A stretch of 64,000 nucleotides of DNA from a virus (IMGVR_UViG_3300021256_000007:32440-96439); one strand, 5' to 3'. Shown: positions 26,957 to 63,492, counted from the first letter of the stretch. Made by a program: numbers and translations. The notes: generated by a model not told the origin, from the sequence alone.

Positions 26957-26980
26957 CACCGTCTATTTTTTTTTGCTCAG

Positions 26981-27012
26981 TTCGTAAAATCTGCAATTCC
27001 TATAGTGAAGGT
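26981..27012 (+). promoter_or_regulatory. first copy of the conserved promoter-like element (TCGTAAAATCTGCAATTCCTATAGTGAAGG)
   Basis: Conforms to the consensus T-tract-TCGTA-N6-TTT(A/G)CAAC-N3-CTATAATGA(A)GG seen at 22 or more sites. Confidence 0.45.
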
Positions 27013-27043
27013 ACATTAATTTTATGAAAAGGAGGGAAACAAT

Positions 27044-27148
27044 ATGATGAGAAAGATCCAGCGCTTACTGACGTTAATGTCGCTTGGTATGAGCCAGGCA
27101 CACACGACGGCGGCGCTCGGAGGAGACATCTATGTTCCGATGATCTAA
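27044..27148 (+). CDS. small ORF (34 aa), leader-peptide-like
   Basis: Strong RBS AAAAGGAGGG, then a terminator-like hairpin. Confidence 0.2.
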   Translation: MMRKIQRLLTLMSLGMSQAHTTAALGGDIYVPMI

Positions 27149-27244
27149 TAGATGTTCTTCGGCGGAGGAGTCGTTTTATTGAAAGCGGCTTCTCTTTTTT
27201 TTGTCCTTCGCTGGAAATTCAAAATGGAAGAAGAGGTGGTAACT

Positions 27245-27844
27245 ATGAGCGATGTAATCATCAGCACAAAAGAAGGAACAGTATTTCATGAACTATTCTG
27301 TCCGTATGTTCAGCGGATCCAGAGCCGGCACAGAAAACAAGTAACTGAAGAAAAAGCAATCAAGAAGGGATATTGCGAATGTAAATTCTGTAGAAGTGTT
27401 CGCGGTATTGCTTACAAATATCGTCAGCTTTGTGAAGAGAACATTAGCTACGATGCAACCGATAACGCTATTTGTATCAAGACCGACGTAGGTTTTTGGA
27501 AACTCATATGGCGTGAAAATACGCAGGACTGGCATTTATTTCATATGAATCACAGGGGGTGGAAATGCTTTGATAAAACTTTACCGGATGAGAAATTAAT
27601 GCGCGGATCGTTTCATCGGCAGGAGGACTTTGCGCCAACCACGAACGTATCAAAGGCACTTAAGTACATTCGAAGTCATGACAAAAACTATAAGATCGCA
27701 GAGGAAGATATTCGCAAACTGAATAAGGGAAATTCCAAACAGAAGAAACACTACCAGCAGCAGAAAAACAGAAAGAAACGGGAAAGCATCCGTAATGTCT
27801 ATCGAATTTTTCATAATCTAGAAAAAGAAAAGGAGAATGCCTAA
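27245..27844 (+). CDS. Cys-rich hypothetical protein with a basic C-terminus
   Basis: CPYV...CECKFC pattern. The RBS GAGGTG sits 6 nt upstream of ATG 27245; the track start at 27152 lies in the terminator. The 13-mer is 15 nt upstream. Confidence 0.4.
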   Translation: MSDVIISTKEGTVFHELFCPYVQRIQSRHRKQVTEEKAIKKGYCECKFCRSVRGIAYKYRQLCEENISYDATDNAICIKTDVGFWKLIWRENTQDWHLFHMNHRGWKCFDKTLPDEKLMRGSFHRQEDFAPTTNVSKALKYIRSHDKNYKIAEEDIRKLNKGNSKQKKHYQQQKNRKKRESIRNVYRIFHNLEKEKENA

Positions 27845-28494
27845 TGAAAAACATCCTGCATGAAAAAGCCGAAAGAACCAGAGCTCTTGAGAGAAAGTAT
27901 CCGCTTGTCCCGATCGTGGTGAACTGCATTATCGCGGTTCTGATGGTTGTGCTCATGGCGAGTCTGATCGGCTGGAGAGCACAAATCGTTTCTGAGAAGA
28001 AAGAAGCTATCCGTGAAGCTCAGGCTTTGGCGGAATACCAGGCTCAGCAAGCCGAAGAAGCACAGAGATATCATGCACAGGTTTTAGCTGAACAAAAAGC
28101 CGAAGAAGCCAAACGGGACAGCGATGCAATCCTCATGGCAAAAATGCTCGCCGGTATTAATGGCTTCGTTGAAAACTACGGATATTCTGACGGCGATCTG
28201 AAAACCTATCTCGAATGTGTCATTAATCGCGTGATTCAGACTGGTTACGGTTACGGAGATCTGGATACGATCGAAGAAGTCGTTATGCAGAAAAGTCAGT
28301 GGCTAGGTTTTTCCGAATCGAACCAGGTAATTGACAAGTATTACCGTATTGCGAGAGAAATCGTTGACAATTACTACGATGGAAAAGCGAGACCATGCAG
28401 TTCCGACTATTGCTGGGCTGAACTTCGTCGCGACGGTGTTTGGCTCAAGAACGAATTTGGCGATTCCAAGTATGCGAGAACATGGAGGTATTGA
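27844..28494 (+). CDS. membrane-anchored protein with a coiled coil and a C-terminal SleB/CwlJ-like cell-wall hydrolase-like domain (tentative)
   Basis: N-terminal transmembrane segment, an A/Q/E coiled coil, and the C-terminal segment CVINRVIQTGYGYGDLDTIEEVVMQKSQW...YYDGK resembling the PF07486 pattern. Confidence 0.35.
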   Translation: MKNILHEKAERTRALERKYPLVPIVVNCIIAVLMVVLMASLIGWRAQIVSEKKEAIREAQALAEYQAQQAEEAQRYHAQVLAEQKAEEAKRDSDAILMAKMLAGINGFVENYGYSDGDLKTYLECVINRVIQTGYGYGDLDTIEEVVMQKSQWLGFSESNQVIDKYYRIAREIVDNYYDGKARPCSSDYCWAELRRDGVWLKNEFGDSKYARTWRY

Positions 28495-28497
28495 GAT

Positions 28498-28755
28498 ATG
28501 AAAGAACTGGTTGCTACTTATAAATGTAAACTTTGCGGAAAGTCTTTTGAAACAGGACGTACTGGTCCAAACGTGGCCCAGTCAATTTTAATCGCTTTTG
28601 AGATCGGAGATCCGTCACTAATGAAAAACATCATGGGCGCGAGCTATATGCATCCGACGTGCACTCATTGCTGCGCTGATGGATCATATGGATTAGCTGA
28701 ATTTCTAGGATTCAAAATGGAAGAAAATGAGGAGGATGCTGAGAATGACGGATGA
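28498..28755 (+). CDS. small zinc-ribbon protein
   Basis: CKLCGK...HPTCTHCC. The 13-mer sits inside its 3' end. Confidence 0.4.
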   Translation: MKELVATYKCKLCGKSFETGRTGPNVAQSILIAFEIGDPSLMKNIMGASYMHPTCTHCCADGSYGLAEFLGFKMEENEEDAENDG

Positions 28756-29359
28756 AGCTTACGTGTTTAATGAAACCAATCGTGAGCGAGCAATAACCCG
28801 TAGATCCGCATCGCATAAACGTAGTGGCAGTAAATCTAAGAAATGCACGTTGGAGGTGGATAAAATGAGCAATAAACAGATCGAAAAACAGCATGGGCCG
28901 ATAAGTACCTGGAATCTGAACGATTTATATACTTATGCAGAGTTCTGTAGCATGCCAAAACATATTCAGGCCGAATATCTTCAACATCTGATGGACAAGT
29001 ATTCAATCGGTCTGTCTGCTATTTCGTCAAAGCTTTTTAATCATTCTCCAAATTCTTTATATAAATATTTAAAGAACCATGATGTGGCGCAGAGTCTTCG
29101 TCTTTGCAAGAAACCTGCCAATTCACAAATCAGACAGTTCGAAGCAGATATTAGAGCAAAATTTGAGCCGTCTGACGTGACAGATACTCGAACAGTTCGA
29201 GAAATTGCATTTGGAAGCGATCCCGAAATCGAAGTCGAAGCTCAGGAGTTTTCTACGACTTATATTTCGAGTAAATTTGACGAAAGCGTTATCTGGCTTA
29301 TCAATTCCATGTTTGCCGGGACGAAAATGCGCGTGACAATCACTGTCGAGCGGGCATAA
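28745..29359 (+). CDS. hypothetical protein
   Basis: ATG 28745 with GAGGAGG 7 nt upstream, 204 aa. A terminator at 29363-29401 follows. Confidence 0.4.
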   Translation: MTDEAYVFNETNRERAITRRSASHKRSGSKSKKCTLEVDKMSNKQIEKQHGPISTWNLNDLYTYAEFCSMPKHIQAEYLQHLMDKYSIGLSAISSKLFNHSPNSLYKYLKNHDVAQSLRLCKKPANSQIRQFEADIRAKFEPSDVTDTRTVREIAFGSDPEIEVEAQEFSTTYISSKFDESVIWLINSMFAGTKMRVTITVERA

Positions 29360-29362
29360 AAT

Positions 29363-29401
29363 TATAAGGGGCTGCACTTTCCGCAGCTCCTTATTTTTTT
29401 T
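29363..29401 (+). terminator. rho-independent terminator
   Basis: Stem GGGGCTGC/GCAGCTCC followed by T9. Confidence 0.55.
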
Positions 29402-29507
29402 CAAAGTACACAAAACTATTGCACAGATGAAAGTAAAGTTTGGAGCGTGGTTATTTCAGGTCTAAACTATTTCTTTCATTTCGGCAACAATTTTCGACAA
29501 AGTAGGT

Positions 29508-29536
29508 TTGACTTTGCATTTTGTATATGCTATGGT
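29508..29536 (+). promoter_or_regulatory. canonical sigma-A-type promoter (TTGACT-17-TATGGT)
   Basis: Near-consensus -35 with a 17-nt spacer to the -10. It precedes the HTH gene at 29583. Confidence 0.5.
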
Positions 29537-29582
29537 GACCTCACCGGCCGGTAATCTTATGCTTAAAAAGGAGATTGCCGTT

Positions 29583-29879
29583 ATGAAAGTTATGCTTTCA
29601 GAAAAAGATAGAGAAGAAGAAAAACTCAGAAAACGTATGGATCGCTTTGATTCCGTCGTTCATGAATACCTCCGATCCAATAGAAAAACCGTGGAAGAAC
29701 TGTCGCTTAAAGTCGGATGCGATCCGTCGAGTCTGTGGCGCTATAGAAGGAAAGTAGAGTATTTCCAAAAGGCTCCGCTTGAAATCATAGCGTCATGCTT
29801 ACGGCTTGCTAACGTATCAAACGAAAATCTCAGATACATTCTCGGCTTACCGACGGGACGAATCACATATGAAAACTGA
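29583..29879 (+). CDS. HTH DNA-binding regulator (Cro/CI-like), putative
   Basis: 98 aa with LSLKVGCDPSSLWRYRRK as a helix-turn-helix. RBS AAAAAGGAG. Preceded by a sigma-A-type promoter. Confidence 0.5.
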   Translation: MKVMLSEKDREEEKLRKRMDRFDSVVHEYLRSNRKTVEELSLKVGCDPSSLWRYRRKVEYFQKAPLEIIASCLRLANVSNENLRYILGLPTGRITYEN

Positions 29880-30171
29880 ATATGAACTTAGTAAGCATCG
29901 CTTTTACGAACTTAAACACTTCTGTCTGCAATATTCAAAATGGAAGGAAATGTACGAAAATGCAGACGGATGGAATGGGGAGGGCGACACGACTTCTAAA
30001 GATGGGATCAAGCGTGCCGATTTGAAGACCTATATTTTCATGATCGAAGATTGCGCTCGATTAACCGGGACTGATATTCTGTGTTACGTTACGACAGAAG
30101 GCCTTAAGGTGCCGGTTGAGTTGCGCTATTCCTATAGGCAGTTTTTCTGGTTATTGAGCCAGCGCCGATAA
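29869..30171 (+). CDS. hypothetical protein (possible regulator)
   Basis: ATGA overlap with the upstream HTH gene. 100 aa. Contains a 13-mer copy internally. Confidence 0.35.
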   Translation: MKTEYELSKHRFYELKHFCLQYSKWKEMYENADGWNGEGDTTSKDGIKRADLKTYIFMIEDCARLTGTDILCYVTTEGLKVPVELRYSYRQFFWLLSQRR

Positions 30172-30226
30172 TCGTAATTTTCGCACCTCGTATAATGAGA
30201 CTATATTTAAAAGAGGAGGAATGTTG

Positions 30227-30448
30227 ATGTATTGGCACAAACTGAAAATGAACTGGTTCCATTTCTGGTATAAGATTCATCGGTCTTTTGCGGAGTTTTA
30301 CCTCGGTCTGGAGCATGTAAATCTCATATTTAAGAGTGACTTGTTCTGGACCGTGGCGGATAACTTCTCCAAGAGCCTGGATAAATCCAATCAGACCTGG
30401 AGCAAGTACATGAAAGAGTACCAGACAGTAAGACAACTTGCGGCTTAA
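30227..30448 (+). CDS. hypothetical Trp-rich small protein
   Basis: Promoter and RBS cassette nearly identical to the one at 33357-33410. Confidence 0.35.
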   Translation: MYWHKLKMNWFHFWYKIHRSFAEFYLGLEHVNLIFKSDLFWTVADNFSKSLDKSNQTWSKYMKEYQTVRQLAA

Positions 30449-30564
30449 ATTAGAGCAACAAAGAGGGACTTTTACAAGGTCTCTCTTTTTTTTCGTAAGA
30501 AATGCAACGCCTATAATGAAGGATGATGACGCTTCGTAAATAAATAAAAAGGAGAAAAAATCAA

Positions 30565-30888
30565 ATGAAATCATGCGAAGTGTATAGATGTAGACGTATA
30601 GCATTACGTCTAAGTCGCGAAGAGATCGCAGACAGAGCAGGAATTCAAGCCGACTATGTTCGGTTCTTTGAAGACGGAAAGAACATTCGTAGTGACTTTG
30701 TTGACAAGATCAAGAAAGTCATTGACGATGCGTTCCGGGAGTTGGACGAGATCGAACATTACAAAACGAGAATTCTCGAGCTGGCCTACGAAATCCGGTT
30801 CGACTCAGACACAAAACAAACGCTAAGCCGTACTAGTCATATGATAGTTGAGTTAGGAAAATTACAGAGAAGTATTATTAATTACTGA
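30565..30888 (+). CDS. XRE-family HTH transcriptional regulator
   Basis: LRLSREEIADRAGIQADYVRFFEDGK helix-turn-helix. 107 aa. Preceded by the conserved promoter-like element. Confidence 0.55.
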   Translation: MKSCEVYRCRRIALRLSREEIADRAGIQADYVRFFEDGKNIRSDFVDKIKKVIDDAFRELDEIEHYKTRILELAYEIRFDSDTKQTLSRTSHMIVELGKLQRSIINY

Positions 30889-30946
30889 ATAAACTGCGTT
30901 GTCATCCGAAGATTTGGGAAGTGTTACAGCTTCCCAGTCTTCTGGA

Positions 30947-30976
30947 TTGACTCGTATTTTTTACAGGGGTTATAAT
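30947..30976 (+). promoter_or_regulatory. canonical sigma-A-type promoter (TTGACT-18-TATAAT)
   Basis: Consensus hexamers, preceded by the GGGAAG/CTTCCC hairpin. Confidence 0.5.
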
Positions 30977-31001
30977 GGAATCGTTGAAAGGAGGTTCATA
31001 C

Positions 31002-31145
31002 ATGAGTAATTGGATGAAACAGTGTGTGGCGTTGATCGTCGGAGCGGGGATCGGAGCTATGGGATATTTTGTTATTGAAAAGATCCGGCACCCGTTCGGT
31101 AAGATCCGAGCGCCGAAGTTTGTCCTGCTTGAGGATGAACTGTAA
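31002..31145 (+). CDS. small membrane protein (47 aa)
   Basis: RBS AAAGGAGG, one predicted transmembrane helix. Confidence 0.3.
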   Translation: MSNWMKQCVALIVGAGIGAMGYFVIEKIRHPFGKIRAPKFVLLEDEL

Positions 31146-31275
31146 TTTCATCACGAAAGGAGTCGTTGCACTTGCAGCGGCTTCTTTTTTTTTCAAAATG
31201 GAAGTAAACGCAAATTCTGCACCGCCTATAATGAAGGATAAGAGAACAATAACGTTTAAATAGGAGGAATTTATT

Positions 31276-31473
31276 ATGAAAAATATATTTACGCAGATTT
31301 GTGAATTCGGGCTGCTGATCGGCCTGCTGGTCGCTTGGCATCTGGTTGGTAAAGTGAACCCCAGCTTTGGGTGGTTTCTGAGCCAGCCGGTTGTCATGAT
31401 CACGGAAATCATGGTCATTCTTGGTGCTGCCGTACATACTGTCATGAGCATTGTTACTATCAATAAACAATAA
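31276..31473 (+). CDS. small membrane protein
   Basis: 65 aa with two hydrophobic helices. RBS TAGGAGG. Confidence 0.4.
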   Translation: MKNIFTQICEFGLLIGLLVAWHLVGKVNPSFGWFLSQPVVMITEIMVILGAAVHTVMSIVTINKQ

Positions 31474-31545: not shown

Positions 31546-31785
31546 GTGAAAGATTACATTATTCTCGCAGCGATCATTGTTATTTGTCTGGTTTCCGGTT
31601 TTCTTATCGGCAGATTTGGCATGAAGCGTACCTACGACGGGGATATTATCATCGAACCAACAGAAGACACCGATCGAGACGCCATTCGATTTGTACTGAA
31701 TCTGGAGCTCGATGAAATTGAAAAAAAGCAGCATCTCGTATTTAAAGTCAGAAATCATCTATCGCAAAAATCACAGCCCGTATAA
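31546..31785 (+). CDS. small membrane protein
   Basis: GTG start after GGAGGTGA. N-terminal transmembrane helix. Confidence 0.35.
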   Translation: MKDYIILAAIIVICLVSGFLIGRFGMKRTYDGDIIIEPTEDTDRDAIRFVLNLELDEIEKKQHLVFKVRNHLSQKSQPV

Positions 31786-31822
31786 CGGAGTGATCCAAAT
31801 TTATTTTTATGGAGGTAGATTT

Positions 31823-32227: not shown

Positions 32228-32338
32228 GGAACATTCTAAAGGGGACGTTGTTTTTACAGCGTCTCTCTTTTTTCGTAAAAATGGCAGCCTTTAAGATAGG
32301 AAAGATGATTTCCAAATTCATATTTAAGGAGATTAATT

Positions 32339-32584: not shown

Positions 32585-32625
32585 TCCTAAAAAGAGCTGT
32601 TGCACTTGCAGCGGCTCTCTTTTTT

Positions 32626-32885
32626 CACCATCGCAAAATCTGCAACGTCTATAATGAGAGGAAGAAGACTATCATTATAGGTCTGGCTAGGATTCCGGAC
32701 GACTATGAAGTTCAATACTATTGGACGGACTAGAACCGGACAAACGCCTGACAAAAAATTGGAGTTGACTTCTGGGCGAAAGAGGATTGTATGATAAGAT
32801 TCGTATCCAAAAATGTAATGGATTTTTTCCCATATGATTTGAAGAGATATGAAGACTAAATGATTACAACTTCTCTTTTTTTTCG
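32626..32885 (+). ncRNA. candidate small RNA region: two promoter-terminator units without a convincing CDS
   Basis: A copy of the conserved promoter-like element at 32626-32655 and a TTGACT-type promoter near 32768 are each followed by T-tract terminators. Only micro-ORFs of 8-13 aa without an RBS are present. Confidence 0.3.
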
Positions 32886-32940
32886 TATTTTTTACAGATG
32901 CTAATATGAGCAGATTAACATTTGAAAGGAGCAATTCAAA

Positions 32941-33315: not shown

Positions 33316-33410
33316 TTCCGAAAGGAGGCGTTGTTTTTACAGCGTCTCTCTTTTTTCGTAATTTTCGCAACCGTTATAATGAGACTATATTTAAAAGAGG
33401 AGGAATGTTA

Positions 33411-33530
33411 ATGAACGAAGGATCCATGAAGTTACTGCTAGTGGGTGCCGGAGCGATAATTGCGTTTAGCCAATTTGGCCCAATAGGAATTATCGTGCTC
33501 GGCGTCGTGCTGATGCTGGTAAACAAGTGA
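33411..33530 (+). CDS. small membrane protein (39 aa)
   Basis: Driven by the duplicated promoter-RBS cassette. Confidence 0.3.
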   Translation: MNEGSMKLLLVGAGAIIAFSQFGPIGIIVLGVVLMLVNK

Positions 33531-33625
33531 GATTCTTGAGGAGCTAAATATTACAGCTCCTCCTTTTTTTCGTAATTTTCGCACCTATTTAGATGAAAGA
33601 AACCTAATTTTAAGGAGGAAATATT

Positions 33626-33871: not shown

Positions 33872-34117
33872 CGTGTGCAATTTCGTGTGCATTTTTATCT
33901 ATTTCGTGTGCAATTTCGGTTTCTTGCATGAAAGATATTCTGTACATACAAGTGGTCAAAAACTGCATGAAATCAAAGAAAAAGCCCCGAACCATTGCGG
34001 CTCAGGGCTTTGGAAATTGGTGGAGATGGGGGGAGTTGAACCCCTATAGAAAAGACCTTCAAATATGCATGAAATCAGGAAAGTTTACTCGTTGTGTGCA
34101 TTTTCGTGTGCAGTTTT
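33872..34117 (+). other. candidate attP region: five direct arm-type repeats (C/T)GTGTGCA(A/T/G)TTT flanking a tRNA 3'-end-like core
   Basis: Repeats at 33872, 33884, 33905, 34093 and 34105, all in the same orientation. They bracket the tRNA-like segment at 34018-34045 and abut the 3' end of the integrase gene. Confidence 0.4.
34018..34045 (-). other. tRNA 3'-end-like fragment (T-arm + acceptor 3' strand + CCA), putative attP core
   Basis: The minus strand reads AGGGGTTCAACTCCCCCCATCTCCACCA: a T-stem/loop, a 7-nt acceptor strand, a discriminator and CCA. No 5' half is present. Confidence 0.4.
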
Positions 34118-35137
34118 GGAGTCTAAAAAGAGCGACTCCATATGAGAGTCGATTAAATCTGAGAACGAATCCTCTTTTTCAATCATCGTGTGCTGGTATA
34201 CTGTCTTCAGCATATTGTCAGTTTTGTGCCCCATACGTTTCATGGCGTATTTATCAGGGACGCCAAGAGAGTGGGCTTCAGATGCTGCGAAATGTCTGAG
34301 ATCATGGAAGCGGCATTGTGTGATATTTGCCTTTTCACAAAGTCGAATAAATCCTTTGTAGATCGCAGCCTGAGTTAGGGAAACTACGTAATCTGAATCG
34401 TGTGGCTGCTGGTCAATAATGGTTTTAATCTCCTTCGGGCATTTAATCCAGCGGTCTCCGGCGAGAGATTTCGTAAGTTTTTCGGCAGGTCCGTCTTCTC
34501 CTTCGACAATTGCACGCTGAATGTGGATTCGGTCACCAATGATATCTGAAAACTTAAGGCCACGAATTTCACTCATACGAAGGCCGAGCCAAGATGCCAA
34601 AACAATCGGAAGGTAATATTTTGTTCCTTCGGCAGTTTGGTAAAGTTTCTTAAGCTCATCTTCGGTAAGAATCGAGATTTCGTGAGGTTCTTTCTGAGGA
34701 AGAGTAGTTCTCAGGACAAAATTTGGACGGTACTCCTTTAAAACTGCACTGAGAAGTCCGTGAGCATTCCTGACAGATTTGCTACTAGCACCGCGTTTAA
34801 AATCAGCATTGATAGCTTTTTGTACCTGTTCCTGCGTGAGATCCGTGATATTTTCCTTCATGAGAGGTTGAAGGTAATTCTTACGGATCTTTTTATAGCC
34901 TCGGATGGTAGCAGGAGAGAGAACACTGTCTTTTACTTCGATATACTGATCGAAAGCTTTTCCGACTGTAAGAGGTATGCGCTTTTCGAACTGAAGGCCT
35001 GCATAAAGTTCTTTCGCTTTCTGCTTGACAACTTTCGGATCAGGATCGGTTATGCTGTACCGTTTGCCGTCAACTGCGATTTGAATCCGCCAATTTCCAG
35101 ATGGTAGTTTCTTTGCCTTTGGTAGTTTCATCGGCAT
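34085..35137 (-). CDS. int: tyrosine site-specific integrase
   Basis: C-terminal R..HxLRH..A......Y motif (RFHDLRHFAASEA...LKTVYQHT). The MPMKLPKAK start has GGAGGA upstream on the minus strand. An upstream in-frame Met at 35254 is also possible. Confidence 0.8.
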   Translation of the reverse strand: MPMKLPKAKKLPSGNWRIQIAVDGKRYSITDPDPKVVKQKAKELYAGLQFEKRIPLTVGKAFDQYIEVKDSVLSPATIRGYKKIRKNYLQPLMKENITDLTQEQVQKAINADFKRGASSKSVRNAHGLLSAVLKEYRPNFVLRTTLPQKEPHEISILTEDELKKLYQTAEGTKYYLPIVLASWLGLRMSEIRGLKFSDIIGDRIHIQRAIVEGEDGPAEKLTKSLAGDRWIKCPKEIKTIIDQQPHDSDYVVSLTQAAIYKGFIRLCEKANITQCRFHDLRHFAASEAHSLGVPDKYAMKRMGHKTDNMLKTVYQHTMIEKEDSFSDLIDSHMESLFLDSKTAHENAHNE

Positions 35138-35210
35138 TCCTCCTTCAAAATGGAAGTATAACACGAAAACGTAAGATTTACAACTAATATAATGAAAGGA
35201 GATGTCAATA

Positions 35211-35444
35211 ATGGATTTTGATTGGACTGATTCGTCATCCGATGAGTTCAGCATACATTTAACAAAACAAGAAGAAGCTTGTTATGCGGCAATGTTCGAG
35301 GATCGTCCACGGTTATTCGAATATCGTGAAAACGAGTATCCTAAATATTGTGCAGATAGCAAGAAAATAATAGCGATGTATGTTGAAGAATTCGGCTTAG
35401 GGAAAGAATCTATCAACAGAATCTTTGAACATTATTTTATGTAA
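35211..35444 (+). CDS. hypothetical acidic protein
   Basis: RBS AAAGGAG. 77 aa. Confidence 0.4.
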   Translation: MDFDWTDSSSDEFSIHLTKQEEACYAAMFEDRPRLFEYRENEYPKYCADSKKIIAMYVEEFGLGKESINRIFEHYFM

Positions 35445-35472
35445 CCTGAGGCTACAACGCCTTAGGTTTTTT
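35445..35472 (+). terminator. terminator, one of three near-identical copies
   Basis: Stem CCTGAGG/CCTTAGG plus T6. The same module recurs at 35765-35792 and 37041-37064. Confidence 0.5.
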
Positions 35473-35527
35473 CGTATATTTTACAACGTCTATAATGAAG
35501 GATAAAAAATAAAGGAGGAAAATCTAA

Positions 35528-35764: not shown

Positions 35765-35883
35765 ACCTGGGGCTACAACGCCTTAGGTTTTTTCGTATAT
35801 TTTACAACGGCTCTTTTTTTTTCGCAAAACCTACAACCTCATAAATGAAGCAATATGCTTACATTATATTTGGAGGTAAAAAT

Positions 35884-36221: not shown

Positions 36222-36404
36222 TTTCGCATATTTTACAGCGCCTATAGTGAGAGGAGGCGAATGGTCAAGCGGAAAGCTTTATAAATCGGTTATGCAAGGC
36301 CGGGGATGAAAGGGCCCCAACGATCCGTAATAGCTCAATGGTAGAGCGCCGGGAAACCGGAGACGTGGGTTCGAAGCCCACAACTCTCACAGTTTTTATT
36401 TTTT
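36222..36404 (+). ncRNA. promoter-driven short transcript carrying a tRNA-like structure that lacks an acceptor stem and anticodon loop
   Basis: A promoter-like element at 36222-36252 and a T-tract terminator at 36391-36404 bracket it. Internal to it are a canonical D-arm (TAGCTCAATGGTAGAGC), a CCGG-GAAA-CCGG tetraloop hairpin and a T-arm (GTGGGTTCGAAGCCCAC). The 5' GTGAGAG can pair with the 3' CTCTCAC. Confidence 0.35.
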
Positions 36405-36446
36405 TTTTCGTATATTTTGCAACTTCATAAATAAGGAGGCGATTAT

Positions 36447-36728
36447 ATGTTTTTTGAAAGTATGAAAAAAATTTATCCGCTTGGAACAAAAGTTGGATAT
36501 CGTTACCGGCTGGACCAGCCATATATACTTGGCACAATCGTCGGGCATCAGCGTGGGCTTTATGGTGAGCCTGCTTATCCTGGCGATAAAAGACCATTTT
36601 ATATTAAAATACGGAACTGGGACAATCCGGATTATACTACAACTTTTGATCCAGTTGGCGGATTCGTGAAAGCATATTTTACGAAAGACGCGATTGATCG
36701 TGACTTTAAAAACGGGAAGCTAATTTAA
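36447..36728 (+). CDS. hypothetical protein
   Basis: 93 aa. Promoter cassette identical to that of the 36785 gene. Confidence 0.45.
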   Translation: MFFESMKKIYPLGTKVGYRYRLDQPYILGTIVGHQRGLYGEPAYPGDKRPFYIKIRNWDNPDYTTTFDPVGGFVKAYFTKDAIDRDFKNGKLI

Positions 36729-36784
36729 CAGCTTCCTAGTTTTTTCGTATATTTTGCAACTTCATAAATGAGGAGGCGAAAACT

Positions 36785-37039
36785 ATGAAAGAATTAGTTA
36801 TAGACAACAGGAAACGCACTAATGAACTAATGGATATTGTTTCAAGATTTAGCGCAAAAGTAGGTAACGCTTATGTCGAGCTGCTTAGCGATCTTATCAA
36901 ATACGGAGAAGATCCTAAAAATGTAGAGCTGTATAAGAGTACCGGCTATGACTGGGTAGTGAAACCTGAAATTGGGGCGTTATACAGCACGGAAAAAACT
37001 ATAAATAATCTATTAGAAAACTTCTACATCAAAGCCTAG
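36785..37039 (+). CDS. hypothetical protein
   Basis: 84 aa. RBS GAGGAGG. Confidence 0.45.
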   Translation: MKELVIDNRKRTNELMDIVSRFSAKVGNAYVELLSDLIKYGEDPKNVELYKSTGYDWVVKPEIGALYSTEKTINNLLENFYIKA

Positions 37040-37126
37040 GGTTGCAACGCCTTAGGTTTTTTCGCAATTTCAGCAGCTCCTATGATGGAATGACCAAGAT
37101 TCCAATAAAATTATAGGAGGAAATCT

Positions 37127-37495: not shown

Positions 37496-37592
37496 TTCAA
37501 AATGGAAGCTGTTGCGCTTGCAGCGGCTTCTTTTTTTTTCGTAATAATTACAGGCCCTATAATGCAAGATTTAATTTAAAGGAGGATATTTT

Positions 37593-37871: not shown

Positions 37872-37969
37872 TCGAGCATTGGCTAAGCGCTGATAATACA
37901 GTGTCTTAGCTTTTTTCGTAAAGTCTACAACTACATAAATGAAGATAATTTTTAAAGGAGGAGTTTAGT

Positions 37970-38119
37970 ATGCCCGATAAAGAAACGAATGAATACGAAC
38001 AGATGTTCCCCATCATGATGAACAAATGGCTTAATGGGGAAATTGATGATGAGGAAATTCATGAATTTCTTGACGAGTTCATGAGTGCTCCTGGACAAAA
38101 AAGAATGATATTTGAATAA
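37970..38119 (+). CDS. small acidic protein (49 aa)
   Basis: RBS AAGGAGGAG. Promoter-like element upstream. Confidence 0.3.
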   Translation: MPDKETNEYEQMFPIMMNKWLNGEIDDEEIHEFLDEFMSAPGQKRMIFE

Positions 38120-38208
38120 GGGCCACAGCGGCTCTTATTCTTTCGTAAAAATTGCAGCCTTTAAAATGAAGGGTAATGCCCAAATTTAATCTAAAGGAGA
38201 GAATTAAC

Positions 38209-38958: not shown

Positions 38959-39091
38959 TTTAGAATACCTCCTACATTCTAAAAGATCACTTTAAAAGCT
39001 AACATAATCCTTTCAAAAATGCAATCGGGAGAATAAACAAAGTTTTGGTCGAAATTTCTACAAATCCTCTAATGGAAAGGAAGTGAAAATT

Positions 39092-39307
39092 ATGGACGAA
39101 GAAGAACGCGAATGGACAAAGAACAAGCGTAATCTCATTCTGACTATGATGCGGCAGAAGTTTGAAGAAACCGTTTATTCCTATCTCGAGAAAGGTGAAT
39201 ACAAATCTCTCGAAGAAATGGATGAATGGGTCGACAACAAGCTGCGTCAATTCGAAGATGAAAGAAGCGCGGTACGCGAATACTATAACGCGAAAATGTA
39301 TTCGTAA
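39092..39307 (+). CDS. hypothetical acidic protein
   Basis: ATG 39092 with GGAAAGGAAG upstream. The track starts at a GTG at 39083. Confidence 0.4.
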   Translation: MDEEEREWTKNKRNLILTMMRQKFEETVYSYLEKGEYKSLEEMDEWVDNKLRQFEDERSAVREYYNAKMYS

Positions 39308-39382
39308 AATTTGCAATTCCTATAGTGAGAGAGAAGCTTATATTTACGGCTTCTCTCATTTTTTGTTCAAAATGAAAGGAGA

Positions 39383-50117: not shown

Positions 50118-50386
50118 AAGGACGCCTTACAACTTGTTCAATTTGTAAAAAGACTGCTTTTAGTAAATTGGTAGAAGGCAATACATTTCAAGACGGTGGA
50201 TTTCGCCCCAGAGACTACATGTTTGAAAACCTTCCAGAAGGTTGGGTACATACCGAAATGCGAATTTTTAATGAAAGCCTGCCTGTTGAAGATCTTTGTC
50301 CGGATTGCAGACGTAGAATTGTAGAAGCTATGAAATACGAAATAAATACAATCATTAATGCTGCAAAAGAGACAGAGGCATCGTAA
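50105..50386 (+). CDS. small zinc-ribbon protein, family member
   Basis: CSICKK...DLCPDCRRRIVEAM. Confidence 0.45.
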   Translation: MSQIEGRLTTCSICKKTAFSKLVEGNTFQDGGFRPRDYMFENLPEGWVHTEMRIFNESLPVEDLCPDCRRRIVEAMKYEINTIINAAKETEAS

Positions 50387-50441
50387 ATATTACAACTCTT
50401 TAAATGAAGCATAATGCTTACAAAATTTAAGGAGGATATTT

Positions 50442-51093: not shown

Positions 51094-51137
51094 AAGTCGT
51101 AGATTTTACAACTGTTTATATGGAGGTGAAAAGAAAT

Positions 51138-51320
51138 ATGGCTTATCGTTTAATTATTGAAATGACAGATGGAAGTAAAATAAATAAATGCTATGAGCAT
51201 GAAGAATATGCTACAAATCTTTATGCGACTGCACTATTTAAGAAACTTGCCAAATATGCTTCGGTAATTGATACGAGCAATGGCGATATTCTTTTCGAAT
51301 TCGGCACAAAAAAGAGCTAG
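51138..51320 (+). CDS. hypothetical small protein (60 aa)
   Basis: Internal ATG with GGAGGTGA RBS. The longer tracked ORF, which begins at 51024, would overlap the tRNA. Confidence 0.35.
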   Translation: MAYRLIIEMTDGSKINKCYEHEEYATNLYATALFKKLAKYASVIDTSNGDILFEFGTKKS

Positions 51321-51379
51321 CTTAACAGCGGCTCTATTTTTCGTATAATTTGCAGTTTGTTAAATGGAGGTGACTAAAC

Positions 51380-58503: not shown

Positions 58504-58517
58504 GGAGGGATTGAGTA

Positions 58518-59366: not shown

Positions 59367-59544
59367 AGAGAGTCTGACCGAATCCAACCGCTGCTATCGA
59401 TGTGGTAATCTCGCTCCGGCATACGTAAACGGTGTGCAAGTTGTACGCTACGGATATTCCGGAGGCCAGATTAACCTCTGTACAGACTGTTTCCGTGAGT
59501 TTAAATCCTGGTTGGACGTTAACAGAAAGGATGAGTTTACTTAA
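59359..59544 (+). CDS. small zinc-ribbon protein, family member
   Basis: CYRCGN...NLCTDCFREFKSWL. ATG 59359. Confidence 0.4.
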   Translation: MSKESLTESNRCYRCGNLAPAYVNGVQVVRYGYSGGQINLCTDCFREFKSWLDVNRKDEFT

Positions 59545-59870
59545 TGCAGCATGTTGTCAATGTAGCTTTTGATTTTGATGACGATCGAGTCAAAAAGATT
59601 CTGGAAGACACTACCGTTGAGAAAGTCCAAAAAGATATTAAGCAAGCGATTATCGACGAAGTATTCGAAAAGAGCGATTGGGGTCGAGGTTCACACGCAA
59701 ACCCAGAAAACGATCCTCTTAGCGCGTGGGTAACCCGCTACATTAAGGAGCTCATCGGAGAATACAAAGAAGACATTATCAAGCAGGCCGGTAAAGAAAT
59801 TGCGCAAAGTATGATGAAGTCCAGTAAATGGAAACAAATGGTTATTGAGGAGACAAAAGCGCATGAGTGA
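59544..59870 (+). CDS. hypothetical protein
   Basis: 108 aa. Confidence 0.4.
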   Translation: MQHVVNVAFDFDDDRVKKILEDTTVEKVQKDIKQAIIDEVFEKSDWGRGSHANPENDPLSAWVTRYIKELIGEYKEDIIKQAGKEIAQSMMKSSKWKQMVIEETKAHE

Positions 59871-60432
59871 TATTTCGGTGAGTCACGGTATTTTGAGCGG
59901 GAATCGGATTCTGGAAGAAGTCGAAAAAGGAACCATCGTCATCGATCCCTTTGACAAAAAGTTTCTGAATCCGAACAGCTACAATCTTCATCTGGCAGAC
60001 GAGCTTCTCACTTATGAGCATGCCATCCTCGATATGAAGAAAGAGGAACCTTACATACTGGAACGTATTCCAACAGGAGGCAAACTTCTGATTCCGGACA
60101 AGTTATATTTGGGCAGAACCATGGAACGAACTTTCACTGATGGATTTGTTCCGATGCTGGAAGGCAGAAGCTCGATCGGACGCCTTGGAATATTTATTCA
60201 CGCAACCGCAGGCTTTGGCGATAACGGTTTTGACGGGTTTTGGACACTGGAGATCTCCTGTGTGCAGCCCGTCATTCTTTATGCCGGCGTGGAGATCGGA
60301 CAGATCTATTACCACACCATTGCCGACAGTAACGGAATGGGAGAAGTAGGCGTTCCGGTACACTATACAAACGGCAAATACCAGAAGAACACCGGAATTC
60401 AACCGAGCATGATCTGGAAGGAATTTCTGTAA
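59863..60432 (+). CDS. dcd: dCTP deaminase family protein
   Basis: GRSSIGRLGIFIHATAGFGDNGFDGFWTLEIS matches the dCTP deaminase/dUTPase-superfamily motif. Confidence 0.7.
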   Translation: MSDISVSHGILSGNRILEEVEKGTIVIDPFDKKFLNPNSYNLHLADELLTYEHAILDMKKEEPYILERIPTGGKLLIPDKLYLGRTMERTFTDGFVPMLEGRSSIGRLGIFIHATAGFGDNGFDGFWTLEISCVQPVILYAGVEIGQIYYHTIADSNGMGEVGVPVHYTNGKYQKNTGIQPSMIWKEFL

Positions 60433-60632
60433 TGACTAATTTAGAGCGTCTTAAAAACATAAACAATGCTGAAGAAATGGAAAAAGCCATTCAGCATGCA
60501 CTTAGAGTTAGTCGATATTATACGGATTCAAGACAAGGAATGATCAAATGGCTAAATGATATTGTTTGGGATCCGTATGAAAATGTATTAAACGGCAGGA
60601 TCCAGAAACCATATGGCGTGCATAACTGGTAA
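60432..60632 (+). CDS. hypothetical protein
   Basis: 66 aa. Confidence 0.4.
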   Translation: MTNLERLKNINNAEEMEKAIQHALRVSRYYTDSRQGMIKWLNDIVWDPYENVLNGRIQKPYGVHNW

Positions 60633-60661
60633 TACTACGTGAATGGAAAGGAGCATAAACA

Positions 60662-60892
60662 ATGTTACTATCAATTTGTGATCGTTGCGGAAAGCAAATC
60701 GATCGTTTTGTAAATCCAGATCCTCCTCCATATCAAATTTATATTCGGCATCACGGAGAACGGGCAGGATGGGTCAGACCTATGAAATTTTGTAAAGAAT
60801 GTGAAGAATATCTTTCAGATAAGATCGATCGAGAATTAAGGAGCAAGCCTAAGTCTGTCACTTTAGATACTAACGAAATTTGGGAAGCATAA
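60662..60892 (+). CDS. small zinc-ribbon protein, family member
   Basis: CDRCGK...KFCKECEEYL. Confidence 0.45.
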   Translation: MLLSICDRCGKQIDRFVNPDPPPYQIYIRHHGERAGWVRPMKFCKECEEYLSDKIDRELRSKPKSVTLDTNEIWEA

Positions 60893-60919
60893 TTGTAAAT
60901 AAAACTAGGAGGTTTTTAG

Positions 60920-61747
60920 ATGATTGGAGCTATTATTGGTGATATTTGTGGTTCTCGTTTTGAAGCTGACAACATTAAGACAAAAGACTTTGAATTGATG
61001 CCGCTAATGAAAGGCTGTAGGTTAACGGATGACAGTATCATGACGATGGCGATTGCGCTCGCAATTCTAGATTGTCATTGGGGAAATGGTACGATCGAAG
61101 AACTCAAAGAGCGCGCCATCTTTCGAATGCAAGAAGGAGGAAGAGGTTATCCGAATGCCGGATACGGTCATCGATTCTACCAGTGGATATTTTCATCTAA
61201 TCCAAAACCTTATAACAGTTATGGAAACGGAGCAGCTATGCGGGTCAGTCCCTGTGGATTTGCGGCGCGAACTCTTCAGGAAGCGATCGAGATGGCGGTT
61301 GCGGTTACGGAAGTCACACACAATCATCCGGAAGCTCTTAAAGCCGCTGAGACAGTAGCAGCTGTGATATTTCTTGCAAGAAGTGGAAAGAGCATGACCG
61401 AACTTAAAGATTATGTAGAGAAACATTATTGCACTCTCAATTTTACGCTTGATGATATTCGTCCGACATATAGATTCGACGTCTCTTGTCAGGGCAGCGT
61501 TCCGGTAGCATTAGAAGCGTTCTTTGAAGCAACGGACTTTGAGGATGCAATTCGTAATGCTATTTCAGTCGGAGGAGACAGTGATACGATTGCTGCGGTT
61601 GTCGGTGGAATGGCTGAAGCAAAATGGGGTGTTCCTCAAGGTATTCGTCATAAAGCCGAATGGTTCCTTAATAAATCTCAAAAAGAACTGATCGAGAAAT
61701 TTGAAAGTCAGGCTTGGACAGATTCTGGTATGGCGCCGCTCTGGTAA
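60920..61747 (+). CDS. ADP-ribosylglycohydrolase (ARH/DraG family)
   Basis: N-terminal GAIIGDICGSRFE and LTDDSIMTMAIA, C-terminal GGDSDTIAAVVGGMAEA. These are the metal-binding motifs of the family. Confidence 0.7.
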   Translation: MIGAIIGDICGSRFEADNIKTKDFELMPLMKGCRLTDDSIMTMAIALAILDCHWGNGTIEELKERAIFRMQEGGRGYPNAGYGHRFYQWIFSSNPKPYNSYGNGAAMRVSPCGFAARTLQEAIEMAVAVTEVTHNHPEALKAAETVAAVIFLARSGKSMTELKDYVEKHYCTLNFTLDDIRPTYRFDVSCQGSVPVALEAFFEATDFEDAIRNAISVGGDSDTIAAVVGGMAEAKWGVPQGIRHKAEWFLNKSQKELIEKFESQAWTDSGMAPLW

Positions 61748-61801
61748 TGGTGCACTAATCGTAACTCTTACAACTCCTTAAATAGGAAAGGAGTGATATT
61801 C

Positions 61802-62059
61802 ATGGCCGACGCCAAGATGTGGAATTACGGAGACTGGATGCTTCGTGCGATCGCTTCCAAAGAGAAAGCACGCAAGAAATCCAAAACCGTAGATCCCTTA
61901 AGAGGATTCAGCCTGGAAGATTTTTCAGTCCGAACCAGGAACGGGAGGCATGAAAGCTACAACATTCGAACAGGCGAAGTTTTATACCGCTATCCGATCG
62001 AATCTTTTACGGAATCGGAAGCGTGGGCAGATCTTCGCGAAGAGTTCGGAGGCAGCTGA
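61802..62059 (+). CDS. hypothetical protein
   Basis: ATG 61802 after AAGGAGTG. Confidence 0.4.
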   Translation: MADAKMWNYGDWMLRAIASKEKARKKSKTVDPLRGFSLEDFSVRTRNGRHESYNIRTGEVLYRYPIESFTESEAWADLREEFGGS

Positions 62060-62083
62060 CAGTGCCTCCCTCTTTTTGAAGAA

Positions 62084-62641
62084 ATGAAAAAGTTATATTT
62101 GAGTAGTGTAATAGCAGATCCTAAGAAACATTGGACAGAACGTGTAAGGAGAGAATTAATGGGCGAAGAAAACAATCTTGAAAAAAGCATGATTTTTTCA
62201 GGTATGGTGAGTGCTCCGGCGTTTCAACCAACCGTTATCGCAGAACCTATTTCCGGAGTAAAGCTCTACGACGGACTTTGTCTAAACGAATTCGGCCCGG
62301 AATTAACGTGGAGCCATAGCGTTACAACAGAACCGATCGGAACAGTCAAAGATGTTTTAAAGACCGAGGGTAGTTTTGTATGCACCGTGGAACCTATAGA
62401 TATGAAAGCTTATCGTCGGATATTTGGCCTTCCTGAAGTACCGCTTTCCAAGGTTAAGCATCGAAGAAAAACCTTCAAGAAAGCGCTGATGGCCTATGGA
62501 TATTCCAGAAATCGAACGGAAGCAATCATTTCTCATATGGAGTCGCTTACTAAACTGTACGGTTTTGGGTATTCCTGGTATATGGAGCATGTACTTTATT
62601 CGATCAGCGGAGATATTTCAACTAAGAAAAAGAAAGGATAA
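62084..62641 (+). CDS. hypothetical protein
   Basis: 185 aa. Confidence 0.45.
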   Translation: MKKLYLSSVIADPKKHWTERVRRELMGEENNLEKSMIFSGMVSAPAFQPTVIAEPISGVKLYDGLCLNEFGPELTWSHSVTTEPIGTVKDVLKTEGSFVCTVEPIDMKAYRRIFGLPEVPLSKVKHRRKTFKKALMAYGYSRNRTEAIISHMESLTKLYGFGYSWYMEHVLYSISGDISTKKKKG

Positions 62642-62647
62642 ACGAAA

Positions 62648-62875
62648 ATGGATACGTCAACCAGTAGCATTACCAGTAGTGCATACTCCTTTTGCGGAAA
62701 TCGTTTGCCATGTGGCATATGCAGAATGACAAACAGTATGTGTCCACTTAGATATAATGGGACGTCGATTACGTGGACATGCGGTGATGGTCCTTATACT
62801 TCTTCGCAAACTGCATCGACCTGCACAGCACAATCCGGAACGACAAAAGCGACAATGAATACAGAAAAGGAGTAA
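62648..62875 (+). CDS. Cys- and Ser/Thr-rich small protein
   Basis: 75 aa with CGNRLPCGICRMTNSMC. Confidence 0.35.
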   Translation: MDTSTSSITSSAYSFCGNRLPCGICRMTNSMCPLRYNGTSITWTCGDGPYTSSQTASTCTAQSGTTKATMNTEKE

Positions 62876-62879
62876 TTAA

Positions 62880-63107
62880 ATGACAAAAGACACGATTCGA
62901 ACTGAGATTGAGAAACGTATTACAAATTTTCTAGAAAAACCTGATCTATCAGCTCTTGAAATTAAATATTTAGCAGAAGCGTATTCGGAGCTCAATAAAA
63001 ACGATTTGATGCAAGAGATCATAAGTCAGCCTACTTATTTGGGCAATGGATTTGGTGGTTTAGAAAATTCGAATGTTACACTATTCAATACAAAGGAGAA
63101 CAACTAA
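62880..63107 (+). CDS. hypothetical protein
   Basis: 75 aa. Confidence 0.4.
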   Translation: MTKDTIRTEIEKRITNFLEKPDLSALEIKYLAEAYSELNKNDLMQEIISQPTYLGNGFGGLENSNVTLFNTKENN

Positions 63108-63109
63108 TC

Positions 63110-63415
63110 ATGGCTAGAACGAAAATGGAACAGTACGTCTTTGAAAAACGCCAGAGCGGCATGAACGACAAACAGATCGCGACCTCGCTCGGTATGAGCC
63201 TGAAGCACTTCTACAAGGAGCTTGGAGACAAAAAGGCCGAGATCAAGACCGAAAATAAGCCTATTACAAGTAAGCCTACAGGGCCCGAAAAGAAGCCTGA
63301 GAGCAAGCCGGAACCAAAGCATGAAACTGTACAGAAAGTTCCCGAAAAGCCCGTAGAAAGCGAAAAAATGGCCTCTGAGAGCAAAACTGAGGAAGATTTG
63401 AGCTGGATGGAGTAA
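63110..63415 (+). CDS. possible DNA-binding protein with a low-complexity K/P/E C-terminus
   Basis: N-terminal RQSGMNDKQIATSLGMS is HTH-like. C-terminal KP(E/T) repeats. Confidence 0.4.
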   Translation: MARTKMEQYVFEKRQSGMNDKQIATSLGMSLKHFYKELGDKKAEIKTENKPITSKPTGPEKKPESKPEPKHETVQKVPEKPVESEKMASESKTEEDLSWME

Positions 63416-63492
63416 GTTTGTCGTAATTTTCACAAAGTCTATAGTGAGGAGCAGAAATGCTTACTACATTATGAAATAAGGAGATTTACGAA

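Follow-up and report, generated by a model that had tools for sequence, protein, structure and literature searches.

The 64,000-nucleotide stretch analysed here (IMGVR_UViG_3300021256_000007:32440-96439, called the window below) is part of the ENA contig ERZ12302812 NODE_383 (96,367 nt), which belongs to an Oengus-like siphophage and whose sequence was seen up to the window-equivalent position of 87 kb. It opens inside the structural module, with a protease-capsid fusion, a 2,018-amino-acid tape measure protein and a Prophage_tail protein, and continues past a strong terminator at 26,918-26,947 with plus-strand arrays of small genes, three tRNAs and nucleotide-metabolism genes, a tyrosine integrase lying on the opposite strand. 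The subject of this work is an element of about 30 bp repeated throughout these arrays, together with the phage-encoded RNA polymerase that probably reads it as a promoter. The extension of the contig past the window is labelled L192; L108, L190 and L195 stand for FP_oengus, SPbeta and Rima, respectively, and the other L-numbers for relatives.

The integrase (34085-35254, minus strand) is the sole clear minus-strand gene, lies inside the arrays and has its own minus-strand terminator (34011-33981); in FP_oengus the equivalent integrase is found at the prophage end. The phage family is temperate, FP_oengus being a prophage (PMC5883640). The only regulator gene that Pfam and PHROG identify in the window codes for one Xre-type helix-turn-helix (HTH) protein, at about 43.1 kb. 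The large open reading frames of the window and of the early loci were considered as hidden polymerases and proved to be tape measure, fibres and protease-capsid fusion; no RNA polymerase signature was found in the window's 2,018-amino-acid tape measure gene.

Membership of a wider group was established with the 1,425-amino-acid DUF5906 primase-polymerase, which retrieves 493 IMG/VR loci, more than 8,000 metagenome proteins and 253 cultured-phage records, and the group so defined takes in Faecalibacterium FP_oengus, the Lactococcus 1706 group and phages of Arthrobacter, Gordonia, Streptomyces and Rhodococcus. Neither megablast with the window nor tblastn with a tail protein gave matches among GenBank phages. 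Moorella phage MTATph1, which has a DUF5662 domain in common with the window, was dropped as a relative, as the motif is absent from it.

The repeated element is a real motif. A reading made earlier from the sequence alone (the sequence-only reading) had listed 23 copies, and a copy does lie at every one of these coordinates, the one at 35790 being truncated, without the third block, with a full copy 30 nt further on at 35822. The consensus as then spelled, TCGTA-N6-TTTRCAAC, does not stand: it gives 6 matches against 3.7 expected (chance level), and none at the listed places. The DNA at three of those places has the spacing TCGTA-N5-T(G/A)CAAC-N3-TATAAT, and the corrected form of the motif is TCG(T/C)A-N5-T(A/G)CA(A/G)C-N3-TATAAT-G-R-R-R, about 30 bp in three blocks whose centres are about 10 bp apart. 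Searched as TCGTA-N5-TGCAAC-N3-TATAAT with up to three mismatches, it has 16 matches, all on the plus strand, where 0.29 are expected and 100 shuffles gave 2 at most. An iterated position weight matrix (PWM) finds 28 plus-strand sites between 26,982 and 63,421 and a single weak minus-strand match; five of the sites (30952, 31762, 32273, 39049 and 61759) add to the original list. The same weight-matrix scan finds no site in the window's tail/late operon, about 27 kb long. Past the window the series goes on at the equivalent of 65.0, 67.8 and 78.8 kb (in L192), and the RNA polymerase gene follows the last of these sites at a distance of about 0.9 kb. The sites and the features tied to them, with PWM scores, are the following.

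26918..26947, plus strand: strong intrinsic terminator, 13-bp stem and T-run; closes the motif-free late (tail) operon
26982..27011, plus strand: putative promoter, 35.5; TCGTA/TGCAAT/TATAGT/GAAGG; first after the tail/late operon, with terminator 26918-26947 upstream
30172..30201, plus strand: putative promoter, 31.6; duplicate of the 33356 site
30493..30522, plus strand: putative promoter, 39.1; exact corrected consensus; adjoins terminator hairpin 30460-30488
30952..30981, plus strand: putative promoter, 24.0; sole site with a sigma-A-like -35 (TTGACT, 18-bp spacer)
31208..31237, plus strand: putative promoter, 33.6; terminator 31155-31188, 20 nt upstream
31762..31791, plus strand: putative promoter, 27.8; weaker; absent from the original list
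32273..32302, plus strand: putative promoter, 31.3; adjoins terminator hairpin 32241-32266; absent from the original list
32631..32660, plus strand: putative promoter, 35.7; adjoins terminator hairpin 32593-32618
32883..32912, plus strand: putative promoter, 34.1
33356..33385, plus strand: putative promoter, 41.7; adjoins terminator hairpin 33324-33349
33570..33599, plus strand: putative promoter, 35.8; adjoins terminator hairpin 33538-33562
35169..35198, plus strand: putative promoter, 25.4; Shine-Dalgarno sequence (SD) begins 3 nt past the block; antisense inside the 5' end of the integrase gene
35472..35501, plus strand: putative promoter, 45.8, the window's best; adjoins terminator hairpin 35443-35468
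35793..35812, plus strand: truncated copy, blocks 1-2 only; belongs to a duplicated boundary
35822..35851, plus strand: putative promoter, 37.7
36224..36253, plus strand: putative promoter, 39.2; would drive a tRNA-like non-coding RNA, whose 5' stem GUGAGAG begins within the TATAGT block
36247..36392, plus strand: tRNA-like RNA cargo; Rfam tRNA 34.8 bits at 36331-36381; fold -51 kcal/mol, z = -2.2
36408..36437, plus strand: putative promoter, 38.8; AAGGAGG immediately past the block
36745..36774, plus strand: putative promoter, 40.1; adjoins terminator hairpin 36714-36737; SD begins 1 nt past the block
37062..37091, plus strand: putative promoter, 35.3; adjoins terminator hairpin 37031-37060
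37539..37568, plus strand: putative promoter, 37.2; adjoins terminator hairpin 37504-37531
37916..37945, plus strand: putative promoter, 37.1; adjoins terminator hairpin 37887-37904
38143..38172, plus strand: putative promoter, 41.4; adjoins terminator hairpin 38114-38140
39049..39078, plus strand: putative promoter, 31.3; absent from the original list
39302..39331, plus strand: putative promoter, 36.3; leader hairpin and T-run directly 3'; heads the long operon 39.4-50.4 kb
50381..50410, plus strand: putative promoter, 30.7
51097..51126, plus strand: putative promoter, 27.7; directly 3' of tRNA-Gln; GGAGG begins 1 nt past the block
51341..51370, plus strand: putative promoter, 36.3; adjoins terminator hairpin 51313-51335; heads the operon 51.4-61.7 kb
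61759..61788, plus strand: putative promoter, 29.8; absent from the original list
63421..63450, plus strand: putative promoter, 31.0

The motif is placed just 3' of terminators and just 5' of SDs or start codons, tRNAs or tRNA-like RNA. The earlier claim that each element is paired with an upstream terminator stands for about half of the sites: 15 of the 28 adjoin a hairpin with a dG of at most -7 kcal/mol and a T-tract that leads into TCGTA, two more have a terminator 20-35 nt upstream, and about ten have none. Between 26 and 45 kb there are 37 terminator-like sites against 16 expected, with the G+C-rich hairpin and T-run of intrinsic terminators, and several of the stems contain G-T pairs, as expected of plus-strand RNA. 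The cassette architecture itself, in which a unit consists of a terminator, a putative promoter and one or a few small genes, was borne out, as were all three reported duplications of cassette boundaries: 30172-30229 and 33356-33413 are 91% identical over 58 nt, 36403-36442 and 36740-36779 are 98% identical, and 35444-35491 and 35765-35812 are 96% identical, with a third copy (37034-37081) at 71%. Many of the terminator loops between 26900 and 40000 share ACAGC or ACAAC at the junction of the loop and the 3' arm, resembling block 2 of the motif, a likeness that may reflect only the common descent of cassette boundaries. At some sites (window 39302-39365; L192 2286-2340 and 16126-16200; L108 27684-27750) a hairpin and T-run lie directly 3', like a leader terminator or attenuator.

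Comparison with related phages, which the sequence-only reading had proposed as a check, recovers the same three-block motif in 80 uncultured relatives and in cultured phages. In IMG/VR, 18 loci match the exact pattern, and the majority have many copies. In the 80 IMG/VR loci (1.52 Mb, fetched via the primase-polymerase and scored with the matrix derived from the window), 368 matches lie on the coding (plus) strand and 2 on the other, ahead of arrays of small genes. The family logo keeps C-G-C/T in block 1, A-C-A in block 2 and C-T-w-T-w-A-T-G-R-R-R in block 3 and beyond; among 292 unique family sites, the equivalent of the '-11 A' (hexamer position 2) is A in 65%, position 6 is T in 97% and the next base is G in 94%. 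Cultured phages share this architecture. Their copies never occupy both strands of a genome, lie chiefly in small-gene arrays past the tail genes and take the following forms.

Lactococcus P118, plus strand only: AATTTTA..TTTTACAyACC-CTATAAT-GArAG
Lactococcus 1706, plus strand only: ..TTTACAta..C-TATAGT-AGAAAGAAGG
Arthrobacter Circum, plus strand only: TCGCG-TAAAT-TACAAG-GGC-TATAAT-rGAAG (phage 45% GC, host 63%)
Streptomyces Rima, plus strand only: TCGCA-N5-TACAyG-nCC-TATArT-GAGACCCCTAC (phage 59% GC)
FP_oengus, plus strand only, a more diverged variant in 13 copies: CGCGAAAAAtaCAGnCTCC-TTTAT-GGAAG, with CTTTAT-GGAAG at the hexamer

The conserved blocks are shared by phages with only about 40% protein identity and with hosts in different phyla, and the motif is a family trait which crosses host phyla (Firmicutes and Actinobacteria), not a peculiarity of this phage. 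Block 1 takes different forms in different phage lineages (TCGTA, TCGCA, TCACA and CGCGA), congruent with the clades of the RNA polymerase described below and with substitutions in its HTH recognition helices. As a negative control for a host origin, the strict pattern was scanned against 185,579 species genomes of bacteria and archaea (GTDB) and gave only two matches, one of them within an ABC-permease gene and attributable to chance, so host promoters are not of this type. The searchable literature yielded no account of the promoter described here.

About 16 kb past the window, the contig codes for a 990-amino-acid protein (L192 17040-20012, equivalent to 79.8-82.7 kb) which carries the sequence SGADYDGDTV, is 69.5% identical to its nearest IMG/VR relative and has a motif site and a leader hairpin 0.9 kb upstream. 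It matches phrog_4291 ('RNA-dependent RNA polymerase') from end to end (E = 2.7e-295) and the YonO family phrog_8308 locally (E = 1.2e-6), over the RxPH...DxDGD barrel. Pfam gives clear HTH_23 and Sigma70_r4_2 matches and an RdRP match (E = 0.004-0.011) under the family cut-off, whereas NCBIfam returns sigma-like HTH fragments only. An alignment of 12 sequences reveals a pair of HTH-like segments close to the N-terminus and a further one at the C-terminal end, and the family has an invariant N-terminal motif, HYGTxRHSGRYPWGSG. The protein is accordingly a predicted single-subunit two-barrel polymerase (YonO/RdRP-like, PHROG 4291) with fused HTH domains resembling sigma region 4. Its FP_oengus homologue, gp55, carries the RefSeq label RNA-dependent RNA polymerase, and tblastn detects homologues (39-46% identity) in all relatives for which the locus extends that far, each with the motif about 0.9 kb upstream. 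Cultured phages with this polymerase number 250, their host groups and numbers matching those of the 253 with the primase-polymerase. By sequence matches, this phage has a two-barrel polymerase of its own, and the strand-specific motif is common to enzyme-bearing relatives whatever their host, as seen in Lactococcus, Faecalibacterium, Arthrobacter and Streptomyces phages.

The polymerase gene lies at the end of the early/middle region, and in all lineages examined its operon sits behind a motif site and a leader terminator; this leader hairpin, found in every one of these lineages, may control the polymerase level or yield a short RNA. The records of the cos-ended actinophages examined (Circum, Rima and ReqiPoco6), and also those of P118 and 1706, have the gene at their right end. 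In the ReqiPoco6 record the homologue is labelled structural ('similar to 1706 gp75 structural protein'), a second-hand clue to carriage in the virion. Just upstream of the endonuclease-exonuclease-polymerase operon, two distant relatives have clusters of short repeats, TGGCCAAAAA in FP_oengus (L108 26900-27100) and GCCACTTTTG/CAAAAGTGGC in Rima (L195 31034-31480), possibly operator arrays or origins of replication.

The sequence-only reading placed the start 6-8 nt downstream of the TATAAT, a position which, on indirect evidence from sequence, clashes with SD cores, tRNA-like genes and RNA stems located at the edge of the block. Among 412 unique sites (window and relatives), 320 have an SD and a start codon within 120 nt, and in 69 of these 320 the SD core is 0-5 nt past the block; in Lactococcus phage 1706, the lactococcal SD (AGAAAGAAGG) follows the TATAGT directly. 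In 11 relatives, tRNA or tRNA-like genes begin 1-7 nt past the block (1 nt in FP_oengus). The tRNA-like RNA at 36,247-36,392 is closed by a stem of 7 bp; GUGAGAG, the 5' strand of this stem, starts from the fifth base of TATAGT and so takes in the last two bases of the block, the stem of a homologous RNA in L003 likewise starts inside the block, and several sites are directly followed by a hairpin and T-run whose 5' arm is 0-3 nt from the block. Since a start 6-8 nt downstream would truncate these SDs, tRNA ends and stems, we infer that transcription probably begins at the 3' edge of the block, on the conserved purine. The TATAAT-like block is then more plausibly the place where the DNA melts and initiation occurs than a -12/-7 element. 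Sigma-A starts about 5-9 nt downstream of the -10 hexamer, a distance with which the positions of SDs, tRNAs and stems indirectly disagree.

The cassette at 36224-36405 is complete, and its RNA of about 146 nt combines a D-arm and a T-arm with a closing stem that resembles an acceptor stem, has a short stem and 4-nt loop where the anticodon arm would be, and carries some 80 inserted nucleotides; the Rfam tRNA match covers only the 3' part, ARAGORN makes no call, and similar units occur in L003 and L016. The relatives L059, L061, L066, L067, L072, L074, L083, L089 and L108 (2935-3006) have tRNA-like genes directly behind motif sites. In these genes the anticodon loop is abnormal (ARAGORN 'tRNA-???') or the anticodon is unusual, as with a UAA-reading 'tRNA-Stop' (tta) in L074, Tyr (ata) and Phe (aaa), and may represent suppressor or decoy tRNAs.

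Taken as a whole, the motif copies are probably promoters read by the phage's own single-subunit two-barrel RNA polymerase. The sequence-only reading had proposed a sigma factor, an activator or a modified RNA polymerase specified by the phage instead of bare host sigma-A; sigma-A is indeed unlikely and the specificity factor is apparently phage-encoded, but it is likely to be the phage polymerase and not a sigma factor or activator acting on the host polymerase. The hosts range from lactococci with 33% GC to streptomycetes with 72%, while the AT-rich motif stays nearly constant, so its reader must be a conserved phage protein. We assign this role to the polymerase because the conserved transcription-related gene reported for the group is this same polymerase, a protein whose activity is itself only predicted (10.1101/842583). 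The spacing of about 10 bp between the blocks suits one protein on one face of the duplex.

In the mechanism that we propose, the HTH modules would read the upstream blocks, which face the same side of the helix, melting would affect the A/T block, and transcription would start at the 3' edge of this block, from either the fifth base of the hexamer or the conserved G that follows. Each cassette would be a self-contained unit, formed by the terminator of the previous unit (with its T-tract running into the promoter), the promoter and, as cargo, a single gene, a few genes or a small RNA. Past the window, one such promoter would head the operon which holds the polymerase gene, and the first polymerase molecules could be expressed from a host promoter or be brought in with the virion. 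As a tentative proposal, which we put forward with less than even confidence, this sigma-independent polymerase recognizes duplex promoters through its fused HTH modules, one per block, and enters with the virion, so that the array would fire on entry and be silent in lysogens lacking the enzyme; the enzyme-promoter pair would be conserved from Actinobacteria to Clostridia and would provide the first defined promoter of the YonO-like branch.

Several points weigh against the assignment of the motif to this polymerase. The link between the two is drawn from their co-occurrence and from the exclusion of sigma-A, and the congruence between block 1 and the HTH lineages may reflect shared ancestry. 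The assignment of the catalytic core draws on signature motifs, on the PHROG match and on the sub-threshold Pfam RdRP match; a profile search of PDB sequences with the polymerase retrieved the HTH parts only, and an hhalign comparison with YonO alone was not significant, though the catalytic motifs were aligned. The strong copies of the motif lie in the early/middle region and the late operon has none, whereas in SPbeta, the sole relative to have been characterised, YonO serves one late operon and not early genes (PMC5467207). Since the polymerase gene itself is behind a motif site, some other route must supply the first enzyme, and consensus scans ahead of the polymerase operon stayed at chance level and brought up no convincing sigma-A promoter. 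A degenerate copy, TCGGC-N5-TACAAC-N3-TATGGG, was seen at L192 20367, in the stretch that separates the late genes from the polymerase gene, and motif-like sequences were noted by eye before the first late genes (left ends) of P118 and Circum, the strict pattern matching in L192 only; as a lead only, the same polymerase may serve a weaker late promoter too.

The alternatives differ in which molecule would do the reading. The phage could redirect the host core polymerase with a sigma-like factor or an activator, as with SPO1 gp28/gp34 and T4 MotA/AsiA, leaving the two-barrel polymerase to serve a single late promoter. This option has in its favour that YonO is a late-gene enzyme (PMC5467207), that the order of genes is as in SPbeta (polymerase, then exonuclease, terminase and portal), that the polymerase gene lies behind a motif site at the end of the early/middle region, and that the third block resembles a -10 hexamer. 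We nevertheless regard it as unlikely: Pfam and PHROG scans of the genes from about 27 to 73 kb (precomputed Pfam matches only for the further extension) gave no candidate and, in particular, nothing similar to MotA, AsiA or a sigma factor, the start deduced at the block edge is incompatible with a -12/-7 element, the '-11A' equivalent is weakly conserved, and one factor would need to fit both Actinobacteria and Firmicutes cores. That the sites are '-10 only' promoters of host sigma-A, the other blocks being mere traces of recent boundary duplication, is highly improbable, even with a perfect TATAAT in many copies, boundary duplications that do exist and one site with TTGACT at 18 bp. As the sequence-only reading had stated, neither a -35 hexamer nor a TGn extended -10 is typical of the sites: at least four of six matches to TTGACA at a spacing of 16-18 bp occur in 2 of the 28 (against 13% of random positions) and a TG ahead of the block in 2 of the 28, so that by either feature the window sites do not look like sigma-70/sigma-A promoters. 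Recent duplication cannot account for blocks that are conserved across phages at about 40% protein identity and in different phyla, the FP_oengus variant (TTTATGGAAG) dispenses with any TATAAT, and SDs and tRNA 5' ends are too near the block.

The remaining two explanations would take the motif out of initiation altogether. It could be mainly an operator, similar to the prophage repressor sites ('stoperators') of mycobacteriophage L5, which would fit a temperate family (with a tyrosine integrase and the FP_oengus prophage) and many asymmetric sites in a single orientation. Sites of the L5 type, however, are spread over early and late regions and block elongation without being start sites, whereas here the 27-kb late operon is without them; the sites come directly after terminators, where re-initiation is needed, SDs, tRNAs and RNA 5' stems follow the A/T block and purine run at a fixed interval that is very short, and the motif also occurs in virulent lactococcal phages, so an operator is very unlikely. 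A processing or cleavage signal that acts in RNA and makes mature 5' ends would explain the restriction to one strand and the position directly upstream of SDs and tRNA-like genes; yet 15 of the 28 copies sit past an intrinsic terminator and would often go untranscribed, the motif has no conserved secondary structure, and three blocks with a spacing of about 10 bp suit the recognition of duplex DNA, which leaves this explanation hardly credible.

Recognition by a phage polymerase has its closest precedent in the Thermus siphovirus P23-45, whose two single-subunit two-barrel polymerases, the virion enzyme gp96, fused to the tape measure protein, and the non-virion gp64, each have their own motif, defined by cappable-seq and ChIP-seq (PMC10770324). 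In both cases a siphovirus has its own two-barrel polymerase and a strongly conserved, phage-specific motif, unlike host promoters, before many genes of the early class, and relatives with the enzyme also have the motif. The polymerases of the two systems, however, have no detectable sequence similarity and the motifs differ in sequence; here the enzyme is free-standing, of about 900-1,040 amino acids and with fused HTH domains, and the system is known from sequence alone.

YonO of the Bacillus prophage SPbeta belongs to the same single-chain two-barrel class (the local PHROG match, E = 1e-6, covers RxPH...DxDGD), and SPbeta, also a temperate siphophage of Firmicutes, has a similar gene neighbourhood (exonuclease, terminase and portal). 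YonO serves one late operon from a single start, with a promoter sequence that is undefined (PMC5467207), whereas dozens of promoters would be served here, in the early/middle region. No HTH match was obtained for YonO in NCBIfam and PHROG scans, and a scan of 50 kb of SPbeta, covering yonO and the spacer between yonN and yonK, did not find the motif. That spacer (L190 about 10,435-10,610, minus strand) contains two copies of TCATTTATGA(A/G)GG, loosely similar to the 3' part of the motif; they are in the spacer of the reported YonO start, whose published coordinate could not be mapped onto the record, and represent an unverified lead.

Other phage promoters offer more distant parallels. Those of the T7 group (class II/III of T7, T3 and SP6) are likewise contiguous and phage-specific, with an A/T-rich stretch, a specificity block, a TATA, a purine start and a purine-rich transcript, as can be seen by setting the T7 promoter sequence CACTATAGGGAGA beside CACTATAGTAGA of phage 1706. 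The T7 enzymes have a Pol-I-like fold in place of the two-barrel one, and the motif has the extra upstream block TCGYA; the resemblance is probably convergent. No T7-like RNA polymerase is present among the Pfam and PHROG matches in the 88 kb examined of the 96-kb contig. The T4 middle promoters (a MotA box at -30 plus a -10, with sigma appropriation by AsiA/MotA) and the SPO1 gp28/gp33-34 system resemble the motif in that a phage-specific upstream element replaces the -35 hexamer, but they employ the host core polymerase and start about 7 nt past the -10, whereas the start proposed here is at the block itself. As for the polymerase family, it is the one described by Koert et al. (10.1101/842583), who identified an HTH-flanked, DxDGD-bearing protein as the signature gene of a supercluster of Actinobacteria and Firmicutes phages (FP_oengus gp55, 1706 orf75, Streptomyces BI, Arthrobacter AM/AU and Rhodococcus Pepy6/Poco6) and predicted its N- and C-terminal HTHs and DxDGD loop. 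The word 'promoter' is absent from their text, and both the motif and its link to the polymerase gene appear to be new.

A second repeated sequence, (A/T)TCAAAATG(G/A)AAG, has 16 copies in the window with at most one mismatch, against 0.16 expected, all on the plus strand and with the late operon included.

309, 2374, 14566, 18501, 21529, 27218, 28711, 29934, 31192, 32935, 33826, 35144, 37496, 38437, 39366 and 42783, plus strand: positions of the second motif

Most copies are just past a stop codon and shortly ahead of the next start. In Arthrobacter phage Circum, TTCAAAAT(A/G)GGAG occurs seven times and serves as an extended ribosome-binding site, with related copies in FP_oengus and P118. 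The idea that this motif (TTCAAAATGGAAG) is a second promoter class was set aside in view of its role in Circum, and it is probably a translation-initiation element conserved across host phyla.

Promoters that are specific to a phage and served by its own polymerase are already known as a kind. Among single-chain two-barrel polymerases of the YonO/RdRP-like branch, nevertheless, none has so far had its promoter sequence defined (PMC5467207), and the motif provides a testable candidate: a 30-bp consensus common to hundreds of genomes, including those of easily grown Lactococcus, Arthrobacter, Streptomyces and Gordonia phages and of the very prevalent gut phage FP_oengus. It opens to test how a minimal relative of cellular RNA polymerase finds promoters without sigma, whether fused HTH domains stand in for sigma region 4, and how the expression of phage genes is timed. 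It would also allow better annotation of the 'dark matter' of gut, rumen and soil phages, and could yield a compact orthogonal polymerase-promoter pair for Gram-positive hosts.

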